Shown: piece by piece, positions 48,852-64,000 of the stretch | Position numbering within the stretch: the first letter of the stretch is position 1 | Layout: every line of letters begins with the position of its first letter | Source of the DNA: Solirubrobacterales bacterium | GTDB lineage: Bacteria > Pseudomonadota > Alphaproteobacteria > Rhodospirillales > Magnetospirillaceae | Direction: 5' to 3' | DNA length: 64,000 bases | Assembly: GCA_050260775.1 (NCBI GenBank) | Contig: JBLNCP010000041.1 | Coordinates: 18,198 to 82,197, forward strand | Translations under genes and position numbers: made by a program | Notes under the pieces: model-generated | Database searches by the model: none | What the model saw: only the letters and a program-made list of their open reading frames with translations | Told to the model about the DNA's origin: nothing

Positions 48852-49343
48852 ATGGAGACCTTCCATAAGCTGGCGCTCGCCCTCTACCTGGCTCCGTTGA
48901 TCGTCGCGGGCGTGTGGGACCTGCGCAGCTACCGCATCCCCAACGTGGTGCCCGCCGTCCTGGTCGGCGGCTTCGTCGTCGCCGCCGCCACCGCGACGAC
49001 CGAGGTGTTGTGGCTTCATCATGTCCTGGCGTTCGTGATCGCCTTGGCCATGGGGGCGGTCCTGTTCGCGGTCAACGCCCTCGGCGGCGGCGACGTCAAG
49101 CTGATGGCCGCCACCGCCCTGTGGTGCGGGATCGGCAACCTGCTGCCGCTCTTGCTGACCATCGGCCTCGCCGGCGGCGGCCTCGCCCTGCTGCTGCTGG
49201 CGGTGCGCTCGCCCATGGGGCAGGGCCTGCTGGCCGTGCGCATGGCGACCTTCCCCGAGATCTTCAGCCCCGGCGGCCGCGTCCCCTATGGCCTGGCGAT
49301 CATGGCCGGCGGCATCTCGCTTGCCGGCAGCCTGCCGGTGTGA
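48852..49343 (+). CDS. cpaA: A24-family prepilin peptidase CpaA/TadV
   Basis: 163-aa membrane protein with two catalytic Asp contexts (AGVWDLRSYRIPN and GGGDVKLMAA). Confidence 0.8.
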   Translation: METFHKLALALYLAPLIVAGVWDLRSYRIPNVVPAVLVGGFVVAAATATTEVLWLHHVLAFVIALAMGAVLFAVNALGGGDVKLMAATALWCGIGNLLPLLLTIGLAGGGLALLLLAVRSPMGQGLLAVRMATFPEIFSPGGRVPYGLAIMAGGISLAGSLPV

Positions 49344-49350
49344 CGAAAGG

Positions 49351-49623
49351 TCAGTCGCGCCGGCGGTCGAAGCTCAGCTTCATGGCGATCAGCGCGACGA
49401 TCATCGTCCCGGCCAGCGAGTTGGCGAACACCACCGACCAGCCGTCCAGCATCAGGCCGTAGATTATCCACAGGGCCATGGCCACCAGGGCCATGATCAT
49501 CCAGCTGAAGCTGAGATCCTGGGCCGAGCGGGTCACCCAGGTCCGGCGGACCTGCGGCAGCAGCGAGACGGTCGACAGGACGGCGGCGACCATGCCGACC
49601 GCTTCGGCGTTGATGTGGCCCAA
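49351..49623 (-). CDS. SemiSWEET / PQ-loop family transporter
   Basis: Three-TM protein with the PQ motif (LSTVSLLPQVRRTW.TRSAQDLS). A TTG start at 49623 is supported by a GGGAGGG RBS 5 nt upstream. The ATG at 49656 is the alternative. Confidence 0.65.
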   Translation of the reverse strand: MGHINAEAVGMVAAVLSTVSLLPQVRRTWVTRSAQDLSFSWMIMALVAMALWIIYGLMLDGWSVVFANSLAGTMIVALIAMKLSFDRRRD

Positions 49624-49670
49624 GGGACCCTCCCAAAAGTTTCTCGGCGTCCGCACCTTAGTGCCCAGGG

Positions 49671-49688
49671 GGTTACCAGATGGTAACC
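49671..49688. promoter_or_regulatory. perfect 8-2-8 palindrome GGTTACCA-GA-TGGTAACC in the divergent promoter region
   Basis: Read directly from the sequence. It lies between the SemiSWEET gene (-) and the five-gene cassette (+). Confidence 0.5.
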
Positions 49689-49779
49689 ATTTTTGGGTAG
49701 TGCTGGAATCAATCGGGGAAACCCGCCGTCGCGCCGGGTGCCCCGGCCGGGGGCCAGCGGACGTTAGGAGGGGTCAGGG

Positions 49780-50577
49780 ATGAATAGTCGTGAACGCCAG
49801 ATGCTCGAGATCCTCAAGCGGGGCCGGGACGAGTTCGGGTACACCGCCATCAAGGCGGAGTTCGAGGCCGAAGGCACCCGGGTCGAGGAGCTTCTGCGCC
49901 TTATCGAGATCACCCGCAAGGCCGGCCTGAATTTCGGCCTGAAGATCGGCGGCTGCGAGGCCATGCGCGACCTGCTGGAGGCCGTGCAGATCGGCGTCGA
50001 ATACATCATCGCGCCGATGATCGAGAGCCCCTACGCGCTGTCCAAGTTCATCGACGGCAAGAACAAAGTCTACGACAAGGACCAGCAGCAGGACACCGAC
50101 TTCCTGTTCAACCTGGAAACCATCTCGGCGTTCAACTGTCTGTCCGACATGATCGCCATGGCCAAGGCCCCCGGCGGCACCAATGGCGTGGTGTTCGGCC
50201 GCGTCGACTTCTCGCTGTCGTGCGGCTACTCGCGTGACGCCATCAACGACGACAAGGTCACCGACTACGTCGTCGCCACCGCGGCGGCGTGCAAGGAGAA
50301 CGACCTCGACATCGTCGTCGGCGGCGGCGTCTCCATGGACGCGATCCCGGCGCTGCGCCGGATCAAGCAGACCAAGCTCACCCGGTTCGAGACCCGCAAG
50401 ATCATCTTCAAGGGCGAGGCCATCGACACCCCCAACATCGAGAAGGGCCTGCTCAACGCGGTTCATTTCGAGTTGCTGTGGCTGCTGAACAAGCGCGACT
50501 ACTACGGCCTGATCCAGCACGAGGACGACAAGCGCATCGAGATGCTCGAGAAGCGCTGGAAAGTCCTGAACGGCTGA
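49780..50577 (+). CDS. TIM-barrel aldolase / citrate-lyase-like (HpcH/HpaI superfamily) protein, putative
   Basis: 265 aa. The pattern KAEFEAEG...KIGGCEA..D...A...[15 protein letters not shown] resembles PEP/pyruvate-binding TIM-barrel lyases. The assignment is tentative. Confidence 0.45.
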
Positions 50578-50593
50578 TCCGGGGAGCCGTCGG

Positions 50594-51307
50594 ATGGCGG
50601 GGGGAAGCGCCGGCACGCTGCTGCTGTTCGGTGGCACCGGCGTGATCGCCGGCGCCATCCGGGACCTTTTCAAATCCCAGGGCTGGCGGGTGGTTTCGAC
50701 CGCCCGCCGACCGCCCGAGGGGGCCGGCGACGACTGGGTCGCCTTCGACCCCTTCGCCGAGGGGTTCGACCACGCTTGCCTAGACGGGCGGGGACCGTTC
50801 TCGGCGGTGGTGTGGGCGCAGGGCGCCAACCGCAACGACAGCGTCTACGATCTCGATGTCGACGCCCATCTCGACCTCTACCGCGCCAACGTGCTGTTCA
50901 ACCTGGTGAGCCTCAAGCTGATGCTCGACCGGGGGCTGCTGGCTCCGGCCAGCCGCCTGTGCGTGATCAGCTCCATCTGGCAGAACCTGGCGCGCCAGAA
51001 AAAGCTGTCCTACTGCGTCACCAAATCGGCGCTGCAGGGGTTCGTGCTTTCGGCCTCCGCCGATCTTGCCGAGGACGGCCACGTCATCAACGCCATTCTG
51101 CCCGGCGCCCTGGATACTCCGATGACCCGGGCCAACCTGCAGCCGGCGCAGATCGCCGCCATCGCCGGCGCCACCAAATTCGGTCGTCTGCCCCAGCTGG
51201 ACGACGTCGCCAACCTGGCACTGTTCCTGTGCGGTCCCGGCAATACCGGCATCACCGGGCAGTTCATCGCCGCCGATCTGGGATTCAGCCATGTCCGCAT
51301 CGTTTGA
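50594..51307 (+). CDS. short-chain dehydrogenase/reductase
   Basis: FGGTGVIAGAI (Rossmann), then SS...YCVTKSAL (Ser and YxxxK) and PGALDTPMT. Confidence 0.8.
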   Translation: MAGGSAGTLLLFGGTGVIAGAIRDLFKSQGWRVVSTARRPPEGAGDDWVAFDPFAEGFDHACLDGRGPFSAVVWAQGANRNDSVYDLDVDAHLDLYRANVLFNLVSLKLMLDRGLLAPASRLCVISSIWQNLARQKKLSYCVTKSALQGFVLSASADLAEDGHVINAILPGALDTPMTRANLQPAQIAAIAGATKFGRLPQLDDVANLALFLCGPGNTGITGQFIAADLGFSHVRIV

Positions 51308-52364
51308 GGTTTCGTCGAGCACCGGCGCCTACGGCGTCGAGATCGTGCCGGGCTCGTTCGCCGCGCTGGCCAAGGCGACCGGTGACGTGGTGACGGTCTG
51401 CGACGAGCGTTTCGCCAAGGATCTCGGCGGCGGGCGCGTGCTGGCCCTGGCCGCCGACGAATCCACCAAGAGCCTGGAAGCCATGCCGGCCATCATCAGC
51501 CGCCTGCGCGAGCTGGGCGCCACGCGCTCGACCCGGCTGGTCGCCGTGGGCGGCGGCATCGTCCAGGACGTGGCCGCCTTCTGCGCCTCGGTCTACATGC
51601 GCGGGCTGGTGTGGGAATACTGGCCGACCACCCTGCTGGGCATGGTCGATTCCTGCATCGGCGGCAAATCCTCCATCAACGCCGGTGCCTACAAGAACCT
51701 GGTCGGCACCTTCCATCCGCCCGAGACCATCCGCATCGATCCCCGCCTTGCCGCCTCGCTGTCGATCGAGCAGCGCGTCGCCGGCCTGTGCGAGGCGGTC
51801 AAGATCTGCTTCGCCGGGGGCGACGAGCCCTTCGCCGCCTATCTCGCCCGCAATCCCGAGGTGGCCATGGGCGAGGTGGAACTGGAGGGAGTGATCCACT
51901 CCACCCTGCTGACCAAGAAGTGGTTCATCGAGGTCGACGAGTTCGACCGCGCCGAACGCCTGCTGCTCAATTTCGGCCACACCTTTGGCCACGCCATCGA
52001 GGCGGCCTCCGCCTTCGCCATCAGCCACGGGGTGGCGGTCGGCCTCGGCATGCTGTGCGCAGCCGAACTGGGCGCCCGCCGCGGCTTCGATTACGCCAAG
52101 GTCGCCCGGGTGCGCCAGTTGGTGGCGCATACCGAGGCGCTGCTGGCCAAGGTCGCGGGCCTCGCCCAGGCTTTGGGGCGGGTCGATCCGGCGGCGGCCA
52201 CCGAGCGCCTGCTGGCCGACAAGAAGCACGGCGCCGATTTCCTGGCGGTCATCGCCATCGACGCCCAGGGGCATCTGGAGCGGCTCAAGCTGCCGCGCAC
52301 TCCCGAGAGCCTGGACACCATCCGCGGCGTGTTCGCCGCCATCATCGCGAGATACGGGGCATGA
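51291..52364 (+). CDS. 3-dehydroquinate synthase-like sugar-phosphate cyclase family protein
   Basis: GGGIVQDVAAFCAS, DSCIGGKSSINAGAYKNLVGTFHPP and LNFGHTFGHAIE match DHQS-family motifs. It overlaps the SDR gene by 17 nt and is not next to aroK. Confidence 0.8.
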   Translation: MSASFEVSSSTGAYGVEIVPGSFAALAKATGDVVTVCDERFAKDLGGGRVLALAADESTKSLEAMPAIISRLRELGATRSTRLVAVGGGIVQDVAAFCASVYMRGLVWEYWPTTLLGMVDSCIGGKSSINAGAYKNLVGTFHPPETIRIDPRLAASLSIEQRVAGLCEAVKICFAGGDEPFAAYLARNPEVAMGEVELEGVIHSTLLTKKWFIEVDEFDRAERLLLNFGHTFGHAIEAASAFAISHGVAVGLGMLCAAELGARRGFDYAKVARVRQLVAHTEALLAKVAGLAQALGRVDPAAATERLLADKKHGADFLAVIAIDAQGHLERLKLPRTPESLDTIRGVFAAIIARYGA

Positions 52365-54127
52365 AGTACAGCGACGTCCTCGCCGACTGGCTGGTCCAGC
52401 TCGGCTATACCCACTGCTTCTATCTGGCGGGCGGCAACATCATGCACCTGCTGGAAAGCGTCAGCCGGCGCTTCACCGCCATCCCGGTGGTGCACGAGGT
52501 CTGCGGCGGCATCGCCGCCGAGTACTTCACCGAGATCCCCGAAGGCGGCCGCGCCTTCGCGCTGGTCACCGCCGGTCCGGGCCTCACCAACATCGTCACC
52601 GCCATGGCGGGCGCCTTCCTGGAGAGCCGCGAACTTCTGGTGCTGGGCGGCCAGGTTAAGGTCCCCGACCTTGCGCGCGGCCAGTTGCGCCAGCGCGGCA
52701 TCCAGGAGATCGCCGGCGTCGACATCGCCCGCCCGGTCACGGTGCTGTCGCACCTGATGGACGAGGTGCTGGACCGCGAGGCCTTCTGCCGCGTCGCCGA
52801 GTCCGGCAGCTCCGGCCGCAAGGGTCCCGTCTTCATCGAGATCCCGCTCGACATCCAGGCCCGCGACGTCGATGCCGACGCGTTGGGGGCGTCGCCGCTG
52901 GCGGTCCGCCGCGGTACGGCGCCGCAGGGGCCGTCCGCCGCCGAGATGGACAAGGTGGCGGCCATGGTGCGCGCCGCCGAGCGACCGGTGCTGCTGCTGG
53001 GCGGCGGCGTCTCGCGCGCCGCCGCGGCGGCGGCCGATTTCGCCGCCATGGGCGTGCCGGTGCAGACCACCTGGAACGGCGCCGACCGCGTCGCCGCCGA
53101 CCACCCGCTCTATTTCGGCCGCCCCAATACCTGGGGCCAGCGCTACGCCAACCTCGTGCTGCAGCAGGCCGACCTCGTGGTCGCGCTGGGCAGCCGGCTC
53201 GGCCTGCAGCAGACCGGCTTCAATCACCAGGAATTCGCGCCCGTCGCCAAGGTGGTCCAGGTGGATTGCGATCCGGCCGAGTTGGACAAGGGCCATCCCC
53301 GGGTTGACCTGCCTCTGTGCGGCGATGCCGACCGGGTGCTCGCCCACCTGGGCTCCGCCACGCTCGGCGACCACGGCGCCTGGGTCGAGTATTGCCGCGA
53401 GATCAAGGCGTCGGTGCCCCTGATCGAGCCGATCAACACCACCGGCCCCGACTTCATCTCCCCCTACGTGTTCTGCGAGACCCTGTCGCGGCTGTGCGCC
53501 GAGGGCGACGTCGTCATCCCCTGCAGCAGCGGCGGCGCCTTCACGGTGATGATGCAGACCTTTGCCCAGAAGCGGGGCCAGCGCATCGTCACCGACAAGG
53601 GACTGGCGTCCATGGGCTATGGCCTGTCGGGCGCCATCGGCGCGGCGCTGGCCGCCGATGGCAAGCGGACGGTGCTGGTGGAGGGCGACGGCGGCTTCGC
53701 CCAGAACCTGCAGGAAATCGGCACGGTGGCGGCCAATCGCCTGAACCTCAAGATGTTCGTCTTCGACGACAGCGGCTACGCCTCGATCCGCATGACCCAG
53801 CGCAACTACTTCGGCGGGCGCTACGTCGGCTGCGACCTCAACACCGGCCTCGGCCTGCCCGACTGGGACAAGCTGTTCGGGGTGTGGGGTGTCCCCGCCT
53901 ACCGGCTGAAGCCCGGCTTTGCCGATGATGCCGGGTTCCGCGCCCTGTTCGACCAGCCCGGGCCGGTCGGCTTCATCGTGCCGGTCGATCCTGGCCAGAC
54001 CTATCTCCCCAAGATCGCCAGCCGGGTGACCGAGACTGGCGGCATGGTGTCGAACCCGCTGCACCTGATGTCGCCGCCGCTGGACGATGCGGTGATGGCC
54101 CGGGTCGGCCGCTACCTGCCCAAGTGA
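52361..54127 (+). CDS. thiamine-diphosphate-dependent enzyme (acetolactate synthase large-subunit-like)
   Basis: An N-terminal Pyr domain (VHEVCGGIAAEYF..., TAGPGLTNIVTAMA), a central domain, and a C-terminal PP domain with GDGGFAQNLQE...N (ThDP-Mg motif). ATGA overlap with the preceding gene. Confidence 0.85.
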   Translation: MKYSDVLADWLVQLGYTHCFYLAGGNIMHLLESVSRRFTAIPVVHEVCGGIAAEYFTEIPEGGRAFALVTAGPGLTNIVTAMAGAFLESRELLVLGGQVKVPDLARGQLRQRGIQEIAGVDIARPVTVLSHLMDEVLDREAFCRVAESGSSGRKGPVFIEIPLDIQARDVDADALGASPLAVRRGTAPQGPSAAEMDKVAAMVRAAERPVLLLGGGVSRAAAAAADFAAMGVPVQTTWNGADRVAADHPLYFGRPNTWGQRYANLVLQQADLVVALGSRLGLQQTGFNHQEFAPVAKVVQVDCDPAELDKGHPRVDLPLCGDADRVLAHLGSATLGDHGAWVEYCREIKASVPLIEPINTTGPDFISPYVFCETLSRLCAEGDVVIPCSSGGAFTVMMQTFAQKRGQRIVTDKGLASMGYGLSGAIGAALAADGKRTVLVEGDGGFAQNLQEIGTVAANRLNLKMFVFDDSGYASIRMTQRNYFGGRYVGCDLNTGLGLPDWDKLFGVWGVPAYRLKPGFADDAGFRALFDQPGPVGFIVPVDPGQTYLPKIASRVTETGGMVSNPLHLMSPPLDDAVMARVGRYLPK

Positions 54128-55077
54128 TGGGCCGCCTCGCCTTCTCGCCCCATGTGGGCGCCGCCCTGGCGGCCTCCGGGCTGTCGGTGGCGGTGACCGG
54201 CGGGGGAGGATGGATCGGCCAGGGCGCCCTCGAAATGCTGGAGGGCGCCCTGGGCGACGACTTCGCCGCCCGCGTCCGCGTGTTCGGCTCGCGGGCCCGG
54301 TCGCTGGAGCTCCGCTCCGGCCGGCAGGTGGCCTGCGCGCCGCTGGCGCGGATGGCGGAACTGCCGCCCGGGCCCTGGGCCTTCCTTCATTTCGCCTTCC
54401 TCACCCGCGACCGTCTGGGCGGGCAATCGGTGGACAGCTTCATCGCCGGCAACCAGGCGATCACCGACACGGTGGCGGCGGCCGCCGAGCGCGTGCACGT
54501 GCGCGGCATGGTCTCGGTGTCGTCGGGGGCGGTGCATCTGCCGGGCGGGCTGGAAGGCAACGCCTACGGTGCCATGAAGCTGCGCGAGGAGGAGCGGCTG
54601 TCCGAGCTGGCCGGCCGTCTCGGGGCCGCGCTGATGGTGCCGCGGCTGTTCGCGCTGTCAGGCCCCTTCGTCAACAAGCTCGACACCTACGCCCTGGCCT
54701 CGATCCTGGTGGCGGCGCTCAAGGGCGGACCGGTGGTGCTGCGTGCCGGCCATCGGGTCGAGCGCTCGTACATCCACGTGCGCGACGTGGTCGATCTGTG
54801 CGTGGCGGGAATGCTGGCGGGGGATTGTCCCCAGGCGCCCTTTGACGCCTGCGGCTCCGAGGTTGTGGAGATGGGGGAACTGGCGCGTCGGGCCCTGGCG
54901 GTGCTGGGACGGCCCGCCATCGCCATCGAGCGCCCGCCGGTGGATGCCACGCGGGTCGACCGCTACACCGGCGATCCGGCGACGGTGCGGGCGCTGGCCG
55001 CCCGCCACGGCATCCGCTTGCTCGACCTGGACGCCCAGATCGCCAGCACGGCGGAATACCTACACCAGCTTTCCTGA
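54124..55077 (+). CDS. NAD-dependent epimerase/dehydratase family protein
   Basis: VTGGGGWIGQG Rossmann motif, and YGAMK (YxxxK). GTG 54124 or ATG 54127 overlaps the stop of the ThDP enzyme gene. Confidence 0.7.
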   Translation: MMGRLAFSPHVGAALAASGLSVAVTGGGGWIGQGALEMLEGALGDDFAARVRVFGSRARSLELRSGRQVACAPLARMAELPPGPWAFLHFAFLTRDRLGGQSVDSFIAGNQAITDTVAAAAERVHVRGMVSVSSGAVHLPGGLEGNAYGAMKLREEERLSELAGRLGAALMVPRLFALSGPFVNKLDTYALASILVAALKGGPVVLRAGHRVERSYIHVRDVVDLCVAGMLAGDCPQAPFDACGSEVVEMGELARRALAVLGRPAIAIERPPVDATRVDRYTGDPATVRALAARHGIRLLDLDAQIASTAEYLHQLS

Positions 55078-56997
55078 CATCGCCGTCAGTTCGCGGGCCA
55101 TGGCCCGCACCACCGGCTCCCAGTCGTCGACCCGCTCCTGCCGGAACAGCCGCGCGCTGGGATACCACGGGCTGTCCTCGCGGTCGCGCAGCCAGCGCCA
55201 GTCGGCCACCGCCGACAGCATCATCCACAGGGGACGGCCGAGGGCTCCGGCCAGGTGGGCGGGAGCGGTGCACGAACTGATGACCAGATCCAGGCCGGCC
55301 ATGATGGCGGCGGTGTCGTCGAAGCTTTGGATGTCGGCGCCCAGGTCGGTGACGTTGGCGGGCAGGTCGCGGTCGGCGAGGTGCCGGCGGCCGTCTTCCT
55401 TCTGCAGGGCGAAGAAGTGTACGCCCGGAACGTCGAACAGCGGCGCCACGGCGGCCAGGCCCGGCGAGCGCCAATGGTCCTCGGCGAAGGTGGCGCGTCC
55501 CGCCCAGATGATCCCGACCTTGAGGCCCGAGGGCGCCGCCTTGCGCAGGCGCTTGCGCCAGGTGGTCACCAGCTTCTTGTCGGGGCTGAGATAGGGGGCC
55601 TTGCACGGGATGGTGTCCAGCGTGGTGCGCAGCCGCTTGGCCACCCCCATCAGCGGGCAATGGAGGTCGACCTCGGGCAGCGGGGTGCCCGAGCGATGCA
55701 GGGTGCCGACGCCCGCCAGCCGCCCCATGAGGCCAAGGAGCGCCTCGTGCGGGGTGAACACCACGTGGGCGCCCTGGGCGGCCAGCACGGGGACGTAGCG
55801 GGCGAAGAACAAGGTGTCGCCCAGACCCTGTTCGGCATGGACGAGGATGCGGCGGCCGGCCAGATCCTCACCCTGCCACTCGGGCATCGGGAAGGCGCGG
55901 CGATGGGGGGCGAGGTGGGGCGTCTCCCAGCGCGCCTCGTAGCCGTCCCAGCCGCGCACGTCCCCCAGGGTGAGCAGGGCAAGGCCGTGCTCGAGGCGCG
56001 CGTCGACGTTGGCGGGATCGAGTTCCTGCGCCTTGGCGAAGGCGGCGATGGCCTCTTCCAGGTTTCTCGCATACTTGAGCCCGCGTCCCAGGGCGACCCA
56101 CGACGAGGCCTCTGCCGGCTTCAGGTCCAGGGCGCGGCGGTAGGCGGCGATGGCCTCGTCAAAGCGGGCGCCGTCGATGAGGGCGTTGCCGAGATTGCCC
56201 CAGGCGTCGGCCAGGGCGGGATTGAGCGCCAGCGCCCGCGAGATCAGCCTTGCCGCCTCGGCCGGGTTCTTGCCGGCGCGGTGGACGACCCCCAGCAGGT
56301 GCAGGGCGTCGACATTGTCCGGATCGGCGGCCAGCACCGCCTCGTAGCCGGCCCGGGCCTCGTCGTGCCGGCCGGCGCGATGGGCGTCGAACGCGCGCTT
56401 GAGTTGGCTGTCCCGGTCGATTTGCGGGTGATACACAAGGATTGCGCCGTGAGGCTGGCCCAGATAGCCGAGATCGGCCAAACCGGCCTCTACGGCCTTC
56501 AGATCGGGCGCCAGCACCAGGCCGGGGCGGAACCGCTGGATGAGGGCGAGGGCGGCGGCAAGGGTGCCCCCGGAGGCTCCGATCAGGCTGATGCCGTCGA
56601 GGCGGTCGATCAGGCCCTCGGAGGCCAGTCCGTCCACGGTCGAGCCGTCCTCGGGCAGGGCGTAGAGGTTGGTCAGGCGGTTGCCCAGTGCATTGCGGGC
56701 CATCCGCGCCAGGGCGACCGGATCGGTCTCCAGCGCGATGACCCGACCCTCCGGCCCGACGAGGCGGGCGGACAGCAGCGCGAGAAAGCCGATGCCGGCG
56801 CCGAGCTCGACGAACGTTCCCCCGGCGGGAAGGCCGGAGAGAAGGGCGGTCGCCGCCTCCGACTGCGGGAAGGCGCCGGCCTTCAGGCGGGCGAGGACGG
56901 CGGCCTGGGCGGCGATGGCGTCGTCCAAGACCAGGGTCAGGGAGCGGGGCTCCCCGTCCGCCGGGGTGAAGGTGAACGTCAGTTTCTGGAGGGGCAT
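55060..56997 (-). CDS. three-part fusion: SAM-methyltransferase-like N domain, TPR repeats, and a GT9-like (heptosyltransferase-fold) glycosyltransferase domain
   Basis: FVELGAGIGFLAL (SAM motif I). TPR repeats follow (AEAARLISRALALNPALADAWGNLGNAL...). The C-terminal part has ILVHAEQGLGDTLFFARYVP, GIIWAG and DLVISSCTAPAHLAGALGRPLW, typical of GT9. ATG 56997 lies 4 nt after the GT41 stop; GTG 57012 is the alternative. Confidence 0.7.
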   Translation of the reverse strand: MPLQKLTFTFTPADGEPRSLTLVLDDAIAAQAAVLARLKAGAFPQSEAATALLSGLPAGGTFVELGAGIGFLALLSARLVGPEGRVIALETDPVALARMARNALGNRLTNLYALPEDGSTVDGLASEGLIDRLDGISLIGASGGTLAAALALIQRFRPGLVLAPDLKAVEAGLADLGYLGQPHGAILVYHPQIDRDSQLKRAFDAHRAGRHDEARAGYEAVLAADPDNVDALHLLGVVHRAGKNPAEAARLISRALALNPALADAWGNLGNALIDGARFDEAIAAYRRALDLKPAEASSWVALGRGLKYARNLEEAIAAFAKAQELDPANVDARLEHGLALLTLGDVRGWDGYEARWETPHLAPHRRAFPMPEWQGEDLAGRRILVHAEQGLGDTLFFARYVPVLAAQGAHVVFTPHEALLGLMGRLAGVGTLHRSGTPLPEVDLHCPLMGVAKRLRTTLDTIPCKAPYLSPDKKLVTTWRKRLRKAAPSGLKVGIIWAGRATFAEDHWRSPGLAAVAPLFDVPGVHFFALQKEDGRRHLADRDLPANVTDLGADIQSFDDTAAIMAGLDLVISSCTAPAHLAGALGRPLWMMLSAVADWRWLRDREDSPWYPSARLFRQERVDDWEPVVRAMARELTAMSGKLV

Positions 56998-57001
56998 GCC
57001 G

Positions 57002-58861
57002 TCAGAGCGCACTCAGGGCGGTCGGGAAGGGCACGACCCGGCTGGTGGGATCGAGCGACGGCTCGCACCACTGCGCCTTCTCGATGGGGCCCAGGAACAG
57101 CGGGGCGTGCGGCCGCTGCTTCTGGATCTGGTCGTGATTCTGCATGATGTGGTCGATGGCGACCTTGAAGTACTCGACGTCGTGCGGGTCGGACAGGCGC
57201 GAATCGAGGTCGTGGGTGCTGATGCGGTAGGACATGGCGGCCCGGTGGTCCGCGTCGTCGATCAGCCGCACCGCCTTGTCCACGTAGTCGTCGGGGTCGC
57301 GGGCGATCAGTTCCTCCAGGCCGACATGGCTGAGGATCTGGGTGCCGAGGCGGCTGTAGAGGTACTTGCCAGGCAGCACCACGATCGGCTGGCTGTAGTA
57401 GAGCGAATCCAGCACCGAGTTGAAGCCGCCGAACGGATTGGCCTCCAGCGCCATGTCGCCCAGGCTGATGGACTGCATGTAGGCGTCGTTCTGGACGTTC
57501 ATCACCTCGACGACGTCGGCGCCCAGCAGGTTGCCCAGGCTGGTGCGGAACGGCAGCAGGGCGTTGTTCTTGAGGATCGTGTTGAGCGGGAAGAAGCGGT
57601 ACTTGATCGGCGTCGACACCCGGTCGCGGATGCGCCGCAGCAGCTGCAGGTGCTCGGCATTGGTCTTCTGCGCCGTCCACGGACAGTTGATGTAGACGAT
57701 CCCCGGCGGCTTCGGCTCGTAGGTCGGCTTGTAGGTCGACAGGATCGTGCGCGCGCCGATGCCGGGAGTGACCACCAGGCGCTCGCTGAACTCGGTGGTG
57801 TAGTCGTGGGCGTTGAAGGTCATGGTGCCGCCCATGAAGTAGTCGACCTCGCCGCCGAAGGTGGAGACCGGATGGCCGCCCCAGATGATCTGGATGGGGG
57901 CCAGCCGCAGGTTCGAGGTGAAGATGCTCTCCACGCTCATGCCCACGTCCACGAAGATGACGGCGTGGAAGTCGTTCTCCTTCACCGCGTCGAGGTCGAG
58001 CCGTCCGTCGCGCACCACCACGAACTTGACGTCCGAGAACAGCTCGCGGTCGATGTGTTCCTTGATGGTGTAGCCGCTGGTGTAGGCGATCAGGACCAGG
58101 TCGTAGTCCTTGGCCAGCTCCTTCATGTAGTCGTAGTACACGCGATGGACGACATGGCCCTTGTACCAGCGGTCGGTGAACACGCCGATCTTCTTCTTGC
58201 CCTTGCTCTTGGGCTTGTTCTGGATGTCGACCGTGCCGAAGCCGGTGCGGACCAGCTGGTTGATCTTGTGCTTGACCACGGCGTTGAGCGACGGGTCGAT
58301 GTAGGTGACGCCGAAATAGGTGTGGTTGATGGCCGGGGGCACGCCGGTCATGCGCGGGTCCTGGTAGGCCAGGTGCTGGCGCAGGTTGGCGAGGGCATGG
58401 GTGTCGGCGAGGTAGCCGTGGGTCGAGCCGACATAGGCGTAGTACCACATGGTCGCCAGGCCGGCATCGGTGCCGAACAGCAGGCTCCGGTCGACCGCCA
58501 CCGAATTGCGCGGCGAGTAGAGCGCCAGCAGCTTGATGAAGTTGTTGGGCTGGACCAGAAGCTGCTCGATCAGGGAATCGGTGCTGCGGAAGCGCGAGAT
58601 CGAGAAGAGGTTGGCGATGGTCTCGTTGAAGCCGATCACCCGCGAGGCCATGCCGCGGGGAACGACGAAGTCGGCGCGGGTGAACAGGAAGCCCAGCGAC
58701 TGGCAGAACTCGTTGATCTTGGTCTGGACCGTGTCGTCGGCCCGCTGGATGCAGACGGTCGACAGGCGTTCCAGGTATTCGGTGATGACCTCGGTGGCCT
58801 TGGCGTGGTCGCCGTCGAGATAATGGCGCAGGGCGGCCTGGGTATCGAACTGGATGTCCAT
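57002..58861 (-). CDS. HMW1C-like GT41-family glycosyltransferase without TPR repeats, putative protein glycosyltransferase
   Basis: About 620 aa with an all-alpha N-terminal region and no TPR. GT41-like motifs: LAPIQIIWGGHPVSTFGGEVDYFMGG, INCPWTAQKTNAEHLQLLRRI and EANPFGGFNSVLDSLYYSQPIVVLPG. The size is that of H. influenzae HMW1C and A. pleuropneumoniae NGT. ATG 58861 lies 7 nt after the HlyD stop; GTG 58879 is the alternative. Confidence 0.6.
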   Translation of the reverse strand: MDIQFDTQAALRHYLDGDHAKATEVITEYLERLSTVCIQRADDTVQTKINEFCQSLGFLFTRADFVVPRGMASRVIGFNETIANLFSISRFRSTDSLIEQLLVQPNNFIKLLALYSPRNSVAVDRSLLFGTDAGLATMWYYAYVGSTHGYLADTHALANLRQHLAYQDPRMTGVPPAINHTYFGVTYIDPSLNAVVKHKINQLVRTGFGTVDIQNKPKSKGKKKIGVFTDRWYKGHVVHRVYYDYMKELAKDYDLVLIAYTSGYTIKEHIDRELFSDVKFVVVRDGRLDLDAVKENDFHAVIFVDVGMSVESIFTSNLRLAPIQIIWGGHPVSTFGGEVDYFMGGTMTFNAHDYTTEFSERLVVTPGIGARTILSTYKPTYEPKPPGIVYINCPWTAQKTNAEHLQLLRRIRDRVSTPIKYRFFPLNTILKNNALLPFRTSLGNLLGADVVEVMNVQNDAYMQSISLGDMALEANPFGGFNSVLDSLYYSQPIVVLPGKYLYSRLGTQILSHVGLEELIARDPDDYVDKAVRLIDDADHRAAMSYRISTHDLDSRLSDPHDVEYFKVAIDHIMQNHDQIQKQRPHAPLFLGPIEKAQWCEPSLDPTSRVVPFPTALSAL

Positions 58862-62119: not shown

Positions 62120-64000
62120 TTAGACGGTGAAGTCCGCCGCGGTGAGCGAGGTGTTCGACACGCCCAGCAGCACCGAGACCACCGACAGCTCGCCCGACTG
62201 GACGTGGCCGTCGCCGCCGACATTCTCGCGGAACCGCAGGAGCGCTGCGTCGTCGCCCTCGGCGTCGTAGACCACGAACAGCACGTCCTTGGCGTTGCCC
62301 GAGACCGTGAGGCCGGAGAGCATCGTCGCCGCCGAGCTGGTGATCGACGTGGCCGAGCTGCCCGCACTCAGCGAGATGTTCAAGTTGCCGGCGTCGAAGT
62401 CGAACACCAGGTGGCCGCTGTCGGCCGCCAGATTGGCGGTGACCGACACGTTGTTGCTGTACTGGCCGGCGGCGGCGGTGAAGGCCGTCGAGCTGCCGTC
62501 CATGCCCTGGAAGGTCAGGCCGGTGGTGCCATCGCCGAAGCCGATCAGGTCGCTGCCATCGCTGAAGTTGTCGATGACGTCGACGTAGCCCGAGGTACGG
62601 CCCACGTGGGCGAGGTTGTCGTAGCGGACGGTGATGCCGGTGCCCTGGATGTCCAGGGTGTCGGCCCCGTCGCCGCCGATGACGATCCCGCCGTTGGTGG
62701 TGACGTGGATGGTATCGGAACCGGAGTTGCCGACCACGGTGTCCACGTTGGCGACGTAGACCTCGTTGGTGCCGTTGGCGAGCGTCAACCTGTCGGTGCC
62801 CGAACCGCCGTCCATCGTGAAGTCGGTGGTGGTGGTGGTCAGGGTGATCGAGTCGTTGCCGCCGCTGCCGGTCACCGTCTCGATGTTGCTCACCGAGAGG
62901 GTGTTGTCGGCATTGGCGAGGATCAGGTGGTCGCCGCCGGCGCCCAGGTTGATCGAGCCGGTGGTCTGGCCGGCACCCAGGGTGATGTTGTCGTCACCCG
63001 AGCTGCCGACGATGGTCTCGACGTTGGTCACCGTCAGGGTGTGACCGGCGTCGTTCAGGGTCAGCTTGTCGGTGCCGGAGCCGAGATCGATCGTGCCGCC
63101 GACCTGCGAGGTGCTGACGGTGATCGTGTCGTTGCCGGTGCCGCCCATGACCGTCTCGATGCCGGACACGGTGAGGGTGTTGGTGCCATTGGCCAGGTTG
63201 AGGACGTCGGTGCCGGAACCGAAGTCATAGCTTCCGGACGTCTGGGCCACGCTCATCGTCACCGTGTCGGCCCCGGTGCCGCCGAACAGCGTCTCGACGT
63301 TGGCGACCGTCAGGCTGTTGGTGCCGTCGAACAGTTGGACGATGTCCGAGCCGCCCTTGAGGTCGATGGACCCGCTGGTCAGCGCGGTGGCGTAGGTGAT
63401 GGTATCGACGCCCGAGTTGCCGACGACGGTCTCGACGTTGGCCAGGGTCACGGTGTTGGTGCCGGTGGCCAGGTTGAGGATGTCGCTGCCCCCCATCAGG
63501 TCGATGTAGAGGGTGGTTCCGGGCGTGGTCAGCGTCACCGTGTCGACGTTGGCGTTACCGATGATGCTCTCGGTATTGGCCACCGTCAGCGTGTTGACGC
63601 CGTTGGCCAGGACCAGGGTGTCGTCGCCGGCGCCCAGGTTGATGGTACCGGTGGTCTGGGCGGTGCCCAGGGTGATGGTGTCGCCCTGGCTCTTGCCGGT
63701 GATGGTTTCCACGTTGCTGATGGTCAGCGTGTTCCAGTCATCGGCCAGCGTCAGCGAGTCGGTGCCGTTGCCGAGGTCGACCGTGCCGCTGGCGAGGCCC
63801 GCACCCAGGGTGATGGTGTCGGTGCCCTCGTTGCCGACCAGCTTCTCGACGTCGGTCACCGTCAGGGTGTTGGTGCCGTTGGCGAGAACCAGGGTGTCGG
63901 TGCCGTCGTTGAGGTCGATGGTGCCGGTGGTCTGGGCCACGTCCATCGTCACCACGTCGGAGCCGGCGCCGCCGATCACGGTCTCGATGTTGGAGACATG
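62120..64000 (-). CDS. large RTX-like repeat protein with a T1SS C-terminal target region (N-terminus outside the window)
   Basis: The frame is open to the window edge. At least nine 46-aa repeats each carry GGxGxDxUx-like motifs (GGTGNDTIT, GSGGNDSIT, GAGDDTLVL). The C-terminus has GGDGADTLDI...VDVIDNFSDGSDLIGF and ends ...LTAADFTV, typical of T1SS substrates. Confidence 0.8.
   Translation of the reverse strand, partial: HVSNIETVIGGAGSDVVTMDVAQTTGTIDLNDGTDTLVLANGTNTLTVTDVEKLVGNEGTDTITLGAGLASGTVDLGNGTDSLTLADDWNTLTISNVETITGKSQGDTITLGTAQTTGTINLGAGDDTLVLANGVNTLTVANTESIIGNANVDTVTLTTPGTTLYIDLMGGSDILNLATGTNTVTLANVETVVGNSGVDTITYATALTSGSIDLKGGSDIVQLFDGTNSLTVANVETLFGGTGADTVTMSVAQTSGSYDFGSGTDVLNLANGTNTLTVSGIETVMGGTGNDTITVSTSQVGGTIDLGSGTDKLTLNDAGHTLTVTNVETIVGSSGDDNITLGAGQTTGSINLGAGGDHLILANADNTLSVSNIETVTGSGGNDSITLTTTTTDFTMDGGSGTDRLTLANGTNEVYVANVDTVVGNSGSDTIHVTTNGGIVIGGDGADTLDIQGTGITVRYDNLAHVGRTSGYVDVIDNFSDGSDLIGFGDGTTGLTFQGMDGSSTAFTAAAGQYSNNVSVTANLAADSGHLVFDFDAGNLNISLSAGSSATSITSSAATMLSGLTVSGNAKDVLFVVYDAEGDDAALLRFRENVGGDGHVQSGELSVVSVLLGVSNTSLTAADFTV
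62720..64000 (-). repeat. in-frame tandem repeats of about 138 bp (46 aa) inside the RTX-like gene
   Basis: The repeat consensus by eye is G(T/S)IDLG.G.D.L.LANGTNTLTV.NVET..G..G.DTITL......, seen at least nine times. The array continues past position 64000. Confidence 0.85.

Follow-up and report, generated by a model that had tools for sequence, protein, structure and literature searches.

A five-gene cassette with a dehydroquinate synthase-like enzyme as the probable side-chain arm of a caryophyllose-type sugar pathway

Introduction

Caryophyllose and other long-branched sugars are uncommon constituents of cell surfaces with immunological relevance, and the biosynthesis of their side chains has been only partly worked out. 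A unifying scheme for acyl-branched sugars, which covers erwiniose, caryophyllose, and gastriose, holds that an aldolase supplies a hydroxylated 2-keto acid, that a YerE-like enzyme couples this acid to CDP-4-keto-3,6-dideoxyglucose, and that a reductase finishes the product (Steitz et al. 2022, PMC9306805). The long-branched sugars that it covers are acyclic and carry a terminal methyl group (PMC9306805). Here, we describe a cassette of five genes, named G1 to G5 from 5' to 3', which fills positions 49780-55077 on the + strand of a 64,000-nt stretch of bacterial DNA (assembly GCA_050260775.1, contig JBLNCP010000041.1). The whole stretch, which is ~69% G+C, is called the window, and coordinates are window positions unless a contig or locus is named. 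The genes encode an aldolase-like protein (G1), a short-chain dehydrogenase/reductase (SDR, G2), a dehydroquinate synthase (DHQS)-like protein (G3), a thiamine diphosphate (ThDP)-dependent enzyme (G4), and an epimerase-like protein (G5). A sequence-only reading of the window had seen no obvious known pathway in this combination; however, the gene set fits the published scheme of aldolase, YerE-like ThDP enzyme, and reductase (PMC9306805). We consider that the cassette probably provides the side chain in a pathway of the caryophyllose type that leads to a long-branched deoxy sugar. Pathways of this kind are already known, and the part that was not described in the literature we searched is the role of the DHQS-like enzyme.

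Comparison with the closest described systems shows what is shared and what is not. In the biosynthesis of yersiniose A by Yersinia pseudotuberculosis, YerE, a ThDP enzyme of the acetohydroxyacid synthase (AHAS)-like superfamily, branches C-4 of CDP-4-keto-3,6-dideoxy-D-glucose and the reductase YerF follows, an arrangement like that proposed for the cassette. YerE differs in that it uses pyruvate to form a two-carbon branch and works without an aldolase, a DHQS-like enzyme, or a further SDR. The erwiniose system of Pectobacterium atrosepticum (ErwE, ErwF, ErwI, and ErwJ) is similar in that an aldolase-made 4-hydroxy-2-keto acid feeds the YerE-like enzyme, which in the Erw case rejects pyruvate. 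It is unlike the cassette in that its aldolase is of the BphI type and is accompanied by an acetaldehyde dehydrogenase, its branch has four carbons, and it has no phosphate-handling step.

A further comparison is offered by the lipooligosaccharide (LOS) genes of Mycobacterium marinum, in which MMAR_2331, of the aldolase/citrate-lyase family, and the ThDP enzyme MMAR_2332 have been assigned to caryophyllose (PMC9306805; PMC12247030) and MMAR_2333 is a glycosyltransferase (GT). Both systems include a protein of the aldolase/citrate-lyase family, a YerE-like carboligase, a reductase, and acceptor genes, a likeness drawn from published descriptions, and the branch predicted for the cassette is likewise six carbons long and methyl-terminated. 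The genome of the window differs in having its acceptor genes on another contig and no dedicated GT. In addition, the published caryophyllose scheme assumes a free deoxy-aldehyde as the aldolase substrate, whereas we propose an aldose phosphate for the cassette. In our literature search, the papers naming MMAR_2329-2332 gave no enzyme detail, no paper tied caryophyllose or LOS to dehydroquinate synthase, and the caryophyllose and branched-sugar papers that were found gave no role to a DHQS-like enzyme or an SDR partner. A paper on bradyrhizose describes an 11-gene cluster, the enzymes of which are not listed.

Results

The aldolase-like, ThDP, and epimerase-like proteins

Pfam and hidden Markov model assignments agreed with the five domain identities given by the sequence-only reading. 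G1 (49780-50577, + strand, 265 aa) scores just under the gathering threshold of HpcH_HpaI (PF03328, 24.9 bits against a cut-off of 25), and it is tentatively placed as an aldolase by its fold. The AlphaFold2 (AF2) model is a TIM barrel with a predicted local distance difference test score (pLDDT) of 94. Its nearest PDB folds are the class II pyruvate aldolases HpaI, HpcH, YfaU, and GarL (template modeling (TM) score ~0.6, ~12% identity), followed by pyruvate kinase barrels. G1 thereby models as a distant HpcH/HpaI-type class II (metal-dependent) pyruvate aldolase, for which a substrate is proposed below.

G4 (52361-54127, + strand, 588 aa) contains the three ThDP domains PF02776, PF00205, and PF02775 in an AHAS-like layout, together with a GDG motif and the glutamate of an HEV motif. 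It aligns to PDB entry 8RPH over residues 2-578 with 282 bits, versus 188 bits for the best AHAS, E. coli AHAS I, and 181 bits for 5AHK. The 8RPH chain carries a CDG motif, as described for the YerE-like lyase JanthE (PMC12247030). On these alignments, G4 is a YerE-like ThDP-dependent carboligase with carboligation as its predicted activity, and the suggestion that it belongs to the YerE type is borne out by the full-length match. Compared with the solved YerE-like lyases JanthE (8RPH) and PpYerE (5AHK), G4 has the same three-domain layout and aligns end to end with the former; unlike JanthE, whose physiological substrates are unknown, it carries the canonical GDG rather than the CDG motif.

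G5 begins at 54124 (GTG) or 54127 (ATG) and ends at 55077 (+ strand, 316-317 aa). It matches the Epimerase family (PF01370, 44 bits), and its GGGGWIG and YGAMK motifs are those of a divergent nucleotide-sugar extended SDR. A PDB sequence search with G5 returned no match, and its AF2 model (pLDDT 94.5) is near in fold to NDP-sugar epimerases, decarboxylases, and reductases (TM ~0.7). A pyruvate aldolase fold (G1), a YerE-like enzyme (G4), and SDR reductases (G5 and G2), the elements of the published scheme, are thus encoded in one coupled operon.

The DHQS-like/SDR pair

G2 (50594-51307, + strand, 237 aa; adh_short_C2, PF13561, 72 bits) carries the GGTGxIxG and S...YxxxK motifs of a classical SDR. 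G3 (51291-52364, + strand, 357 aa) consists of DHQ_synthase (PF01761) and DHQS_C (PF24621) domains. Of the NCBIfam models, TIGR04425 (AroB-related putative sugar phosphate phospholyase, cyclizing) fits it best, at 270 bits with a cut-off of 400, and two G3 relatives from other phyla reach 275-280 bits, below the same cut-off. With the aroB model TIGR01357, G3 scores 221.5 bits (cut-off 305). The housekeeping aroB was found on another contig (C23:138186-139223) and scores 382.9 bits with this model. The sequence-only reading would have been contradicted had G3 been the only aroB of the genome and able to complement it, but the genome has a bona fide aroB elsewhere, and by these scores G3 is a DHQS-like paralogue and not the shikimate-pathway AroB. 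It shares the fold of AroB and TIGR04425 and keeps the DHQS active-site residues. It differs from both in falling under their cut-offs, in coexisting with a true aroB, and in lying within a glycan cassette where an SDR gene overlaps it.

Among PDB cyclases, G3 is nearest to DHQS (1UJN, 140 bits), followed by DOIS (115), ValA (90), and DDGS (75). All 13 DHQS active-site positions, placed by motif, are kept in the G3 family. Among its 49 aligned members, 11 of these positions never vary and the other two show conservative exceptions: K197 gives way to R in 2 members (K in 47), and in the column taken for K250, 41 members have K, 6 have Q, and 2 have R. In the Aspergillus nidulans DHQS numbering, the 13 positions are R130, D146, K152, N162, E194, K197, K250, R264, N268, H271, H275, H287, and K356, and they include residues that bind zinc and the carboxylate and phosphate of 3-deoxy-D-arabino-heptulosonate 7-phosphate (DAHP) in DHQS structures. 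In the EEVS, DDGS, EVS, and BtrC/DOIS families, the substrate-binding residues are altered relative to DHQS, and the carboxylate-binding Arg and Asn are lost. G3 retains R, N, H, and K at the positions that are altered in the sedoheptulose-7-phosphate cyclases and DOIS, and does not show the pattern of those families.

The genome also encodes a third DHQS-like paralogue (C19:102298-103242, minus strand), which scores 239 bits with the aroB model, below its cut-off, and has an HAD-like gene ~5 kb away. In this protein Q, D, L, and M stand in place of DHQS R264, N268, H275, and K356, a pattern reminiscent of the sedoheptulose-7-phosphate cyclases.

Conservation of the cassette in related loci

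G1 has more than 7000 homologues, and the 120 matches listed are 68-78% identical to it and come from across phyla. Identity to G1 is 64-72% for the genome copies from Acidobacteriota, Actinomycetota, and Alpha-, Beta-, and Gammaproteobacteria. Neighbours were mapped by tblastn and clustering of open reading frames (ORFs) in the best 80 genome loci with a G1 homologue, and the 58 full-length loci among them, which had enough flank and represent four phyla, are the basis of the co-occurrence counts. All three of G1, G2, and G3 are present in 40 of the 58, in Acidobacteriota, Pseudomonadota, and Actinomycetota, mostly in the order G1-G2-G3-G4. A ThDP gene, either G4 or a 35-40% identical paralogue, stands beside G1 in 52 loci. 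Genes for the acceptor are also frequent, with an rfbF-like glucose-1-phosphate cytidylyltransferase in 43 loci, an rfbG-like CDP-glucose 4,6-dehydratase in 37, and an rfbH-like 3-dehydrase in 44; an ArnC-like GT2 is found in 26 and GtrA in 25. The cassette recurs far more often than chance would allow.

In the closest alphaproteobacterial loci (Methylovirgula, Roseomonas, Acidocella, and metagenome-assembled genomes), the order is G1-G2-G3-G4-rfbF-rfbG-rfbH-G5, and an O-antigen locus of Trinickia acidisoli contains all five cassette genes with rfbFGH, Wzm/Wzt, and GTs. The co-occurrence search that the sequence-only reading had called for thus returned the cassette in glycan contexts (rfbFGH, ArnC-like GT2, GtrA, Wzm/Wzt), and its neighbours elsewhere are those of nucleotide-sugar synthesis and glycan export, contrary to the exclusively non-glycan settings that would have spoken against a sugar product.

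The reductase position is filled by either of two families in the related loci: G5 in 20 and a second, 353-aa epimerase-like family in 31, with both together in 0. We read both as YerF-like branch reductases. In at least 14 loci, the G5-type reductase is followed by a protein of ~360 aa, which we call the c14 family (L020:11807-12910, L004:13565-14596, L019:18819-19739, and L086:18843-19886 are examples). This family matched nothing in Pfam or NCBIfam, its profile showed no similarity to either GT of the window, and it may be a dedicated branched-sugar transferase.

Within its own family of bacteria, the cassette is patchy, as G1 was present in 2 of the 36 same-family genomes searched and in 0 of 2 same-genus genomes. 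The two same-family relatives carry a variant, rfbF-rfbG-reductase-ThDP paralogue (33% identical)-G1-G2-G3, which has no rfbH. The nearest copies of the window's G1, G4, and G5 are from unrelated Proteobacteria. Because of this patchiness and these nearest copies, the cassette is accessory and probably laterally acquired. When the occurrence of G1 was compared with that of RfbH across 60 relatives, the profile was uninformative, since RfbH is common without G1 and two G1 bearers have no RfbH. Same-genus synteny was too divergent to set island boundaries (~72% DNA identity, with a tad locus that looks paralogous).

Four Acidobacteriaceae loci (L039, L054, L077, and L081) have the arrangement rfbFGH-G1-reductase-GT2-GtrA, and SDR, DHQS-like, and ThDP genes are all missing from the surrounding 10 kb.

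Exchange of the partners that follow G1

G2 and G3 behave as a unit in the 58 loci, where both are present in 40, neither in 17, and only one in a single discordant case. Their 17-nt overlap is kept exactly in 38 of 43 loci from several phyla, and this conservation fits a stoichiometric pair. In 10 of the 58 loci, a phosphatase of the haloacid dehalogenase (HAD) family lies directly after G1, and it is never found with G3. In the three closest G1 homologues (75-77% identical), an inositol monophosphatase (IMPase)-family protein is next to G1. On the G1 tree, estimates of the number of changes of partner type run from at least 5-8 to at least 14, with well-supported branches forcing at least 5 changes for the HAD phosphatase, and even near-identical G1 proteins have unlike partners (L042/L045 and L040/L060).

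Because the partner switches even between near-identical G1s, the G1 product should be the same whichever partner follows. This product is probably phosphorylated, given that the alternatives beside G1 are a DHQS-like enzyme with an SDR, an HAD phosphatase, or an IMPase-family protein. By the same pattern, G3 would remove the terminal phosphate and leave a methyl end rather than close a ring. There is, in our estimation, an even chance that the DHQS-like/SDR pair is a non-cyclising, phosphate-out/methyl-in deoxygenation module that acts on the aldol product of pyruvate and erythrose 4-phosphate. If this is true, it would be a new reaction outcome, and hence a new activity, for the DHQS superfamily.

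The loci of the closest G1 homologues (L100, L101, and L102) contain, besides the IMPase-family protein, one or two radical SAM enzymes, methyltransferases, epimerases, and a ThDP enzyme, a gene content that predicts a more heavily tailored branch.

CDP-sugar acceptor genes in the same genome

The sequence-only reading had noted that the window holds no nucleotidyltransferase and had left it unclear how a product would be activated. The genes rfbF, rfbG, and rfbH were found on contig C43 (~62.7-65.9 kb), flanked by holA and a large gene for NAD-glutamate dehydrogenase, and pass their curated cut-offs (RfbF, TIGR02623, 452 bits; RfbG, TIGR02622, 482 bits; RfbH, NF011936, 702 bits). The usual eight-gene operon is therefore split in this genome into the five genes of the cassette and the three on C43. 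The puzzle of activation disappears with this finding, because the branch would join a sugar that is already CDP-activated.

The same contig encodes another glucose-1-phosphate cytidylyltransferase, a paralogue that shares 57% identity with the RfbF representative; after it come a gene for a 422-aa protein, which has a Cys-rich motif near its N terminus, and an RmlC-like gene (C43:96808-99400). These genes suggest a second CDP-sugar pathway.

Discussion

Proposed pathway

In the pathway that we propose, G1 would form a DAHP-like 3-deoxy-2-ulosonate phosphate from pyruvate and an aldose phosphate, for which erythrose 4-phosphate is the likeliest candidate. G3 would then, in the NAD-dependent fashion of DHQS, oxidise the intermediate beside its phosphate-bearing end, eliminate the phosphate, and re-reduce it, and the coupled SDR G2 would reduce the 6-keto/enol group ahead of cyclisation to yield a methyl-terminated 3,7-dideoxyheptulosonate. 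In the variant loci, the HAD or IMPase enzyme would hydrolyse the phosphate to leave a CH2OH end, whereas elimination by the DHQS-like enzyme and SDR would leave a CH3 end. G4 would decarboxylate the keto acid and couple the resulting acyl-anion equivalent to CDP-4-keto-3,6-dideoxyglucose at its C-4 keto group; this acceptor would be supplied by the products of rfbF, rfbG, and rfbH. G5 would reduce the new branch carbonyl in the manner of YerF, and the finished CDP-sugar would be passed to some glycosyltransferase. A 3,7-dideoxyheptulosonate minus CO2 would leave a six-carbon, methyl-terminated branch, as drawn for caryophyllose (PMC9306805). We infer the substrates, the order of the steps, and the non-cyclising role of G3 from the protein identities, folds, conservation, and patterns of co-occurrence and exclusion reported above. 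If the pathway is correct, the choice of partner (DHQS-like enzyme with SDR, HAD, or IMPase-type) would set a CH3 or a CH2OH branch end, and the structure of the branch would become predictable from sequence.

Alternatives to a non-cyclising side-chain pathway

G3 could instead be a true cyclase that converts the DAHP-like acid into a dehydroquinate-like ring, which G2 would reduce; the outcome would be a cyclitol-bearing or bicyclic sugar of the caryose or bradyrhizose kind, or a ketone that serves as the acceptor of G4. Cyclisation is compatible with the sequence, because the full DHQS active site is kept, and this counts against the pathway proposed above. A true cyclase would also accord with the greater closeness of G3 to DHQS than to DOIS, ValA, or DDGS. 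The whole gene set is also present in Trinickia, the source genus of both caryophyllose and the carbocyclic caryose. In addition, YerE-like enzymes take cyclic ketones as acceptors (PMC12247030). However, ring closure would use up the 2-keto group that is needed in the ThDP donor, and the published long-branched sugars of the scheme are acyclic and methyl-terminated. G3 and G2 are, moreover, swapped for HAD or IMPase-type phosphatases beside near-identical G1s, and G3 never occurs with HAD; because the pair interchanges with plain phosphatases, the shared job is more readily seen as phosphate removal than as ring building. We therefore regard a carbocyclic product as unlikely. Of the carbocyclic or branched-chain sugar-like product named by the sequence-only reading, the branched-chain half is retained as the most likely, and the carbocyclic half is the less likely in view of the mutual exclusion of partners and the partner switches. 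A different use of G1 can also be imagined, in which it adds the pyruvate enolate straight to the C-4 keto group of the CDP-keto-sugar, and G4, G3, and G2 extend or tailor the shewanellose-like three-carbon branch that results. Shewanellose bears a pyruvate-derived C-4 branch, class II pyruvate aldolases are able to add to carbonyl acceptors, and the few rfbFGH-G1-reductase-GT2-GtrA loci that have no ThDP gene within 10 kb would accord with such a route. On the other hand, these loci look like deletion derivatives with an orphaned G1, since the G1s of L054 and L081 are nearly identical to those of full loci of the same genus (L072, L079, and L080), although they may hint at a second role of G1. 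Direct addition would also place a CH2 next to C-4, unlike in caryophyllose-type sugars, it would leave the phosphatases directly after G1 unexplained, and the conserved carboxylate-binding residues of G3 better suit a free keto-acid phosphate. This route appears very unlikely to us.

It is harder still to credit that the cassette has a non-glycan function in this genome, as a small-molecule pathway that shunts pyruvate to dehydroquinate- or quinate-like or acyloin compounds, perhaps with the SemiSWEET-like transporter encoded next to it. The separation of the cassette from rfbFGH and from any dedicated GT, the divergently transcribed small transporter gene, and the third DHQS-like gene in the genome would be in keeping with this idea. 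Elsewhere, however, the cassette is nearly always in nucleotide-sugar or glycan-export contexts, G5 has a nucleotide-sugar SDR fold, and the SemiSWEET gene is not kept beside the cassette. Several observations weigh against the side-chain pathway itself. The rfbFGH genes are unlinked to the cassette in this genome, and they may serve another sugar, since the nearest relative (83% RfbH) sits in a genome that lacks G1. Neither the cassette nor the C43 rfbFGH genes have an E3 (AscD-type) reductase next to them. The genome has no homologue of c14, and no dedicated glycosyltransferase was identified in it. Four to six Acidobacteriaceae loci carry G1 without any ThDP gene within 10 kb. Finally, the acceptor may vary between variants, because the two same-family genomes with G1 have no rfbH.

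The neighbouring secretion and glycosyltransferase genes

On the 3' side of the cassette, the minus strand carries a gene for a tetratricopeptide repeat (TPR)/GT9-like protein (55060-57012), a GT41-like gene, HlyD, an ABC exporter, and a giant repeat protein, which together form a type I secretion system (T1SS) and GT array. Homologues of the GT41, GT9-fusion, HlyD, and RTX proteins were found near the cassette in none of the 80 other loci, and the ABC exporter had two weak matches there, at ~30% identity over its ATPase part. Only in this genome do cassette and array stand side by side, and it is solely their position that makes the adjacent GTs candidates. Because c14 is absent from the genome, some other transferase must use the product here. 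We think it quite unlikely, less so than direct addition by G1 and a little more so than a carbocyclic product, that the DHQS-like/SDR module is non-cyclising and that, in addition, a 12-carbon CDP-sugar is placed by the adjacent GT41-like or TPR-GT9-like enzymes on the giant RTX-like protein rather than on lipopolysaccharide. The strain is nevertheless a candidate in which to test for branched sugars on secreted proteins, because its cassette is separated from rfbFGH and borders on a T1SS that is accompanied by two protein-type GTs.

The reading frame of the RTX-like T1SS substrate (window 62120-64000 onward; C41:80317-89784) exceeds 3155 codons and is cut by the end of the contig. For this reason, the assembly does not show where the accessory block ends on that side.

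Organization of the locus

The five genes are intact and co-directional, with the coordinates, overlaps, and junctions that the sequence-only reading had given. G1 and G2 are separated by a gap of 16 nt, with GGGGAG ahead of the G2 ATG; G2 and G3 overlap by 17 nt (51291-51307); G3 and G4 share an ATGA overlap; and G4 and G5 meet at GTGATG. The last gene also overlaps the convergent TPR/GT9-like gene tail-to-tail by 18 bp (55060-55077), as had been read before and as the ORF coordinates, the sequence, and the Pfam match of the neighbour confirm. By inspection, a Shine-Dalgarno-like AGGAGG (49766-49771, + strand) is located 8 nt 5' of the G1 ATG. The predicted N termini agree with those of homologues, and GC at the third codon position is 0.83-0.93 for G1, G2, G3, and G5 (the G4 frame was not in the list of that filter).

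A scan of the region with Rfam (49000-55400) gave sub-threshold chance matches only, and a promoter scan gave nothing convincing. Neither the SemiSWEET-like gene nor the palindrome described next is kept beside the cassette in the 80 other loci. On the 5' side, the cassette is preceded by a Tad pilus locus and then by a gene for a SemiSWEET/PQ-loop-like small membrane protein (49351-49773, minus strand), divergent from G1. The region between this gene and G1 was noted to hold a perfect 18-bp palindrome, GGTTACCAGATGGTAACC, at 49671-49688, which is followed by ATTTTT and appears as a stem-loop in a consensus scan. It could be an operator or a hairpin, and it may or may not belong to the cassette.

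Elsewhere in the genome, a surface-polysaccharide region on C43 (C43:78917-83329) contains, next to one another, a nucleotidyltransferase-like gene, a small glutamine amidotransferase/peptidase C26-like gene, and a gene for a ~990-aa phosphoenolpyruvate-utilising or ATP-grasp-like protein. In appearance, this trio resembles the Campylobacter phosphoramidate (MeOPN) genes.

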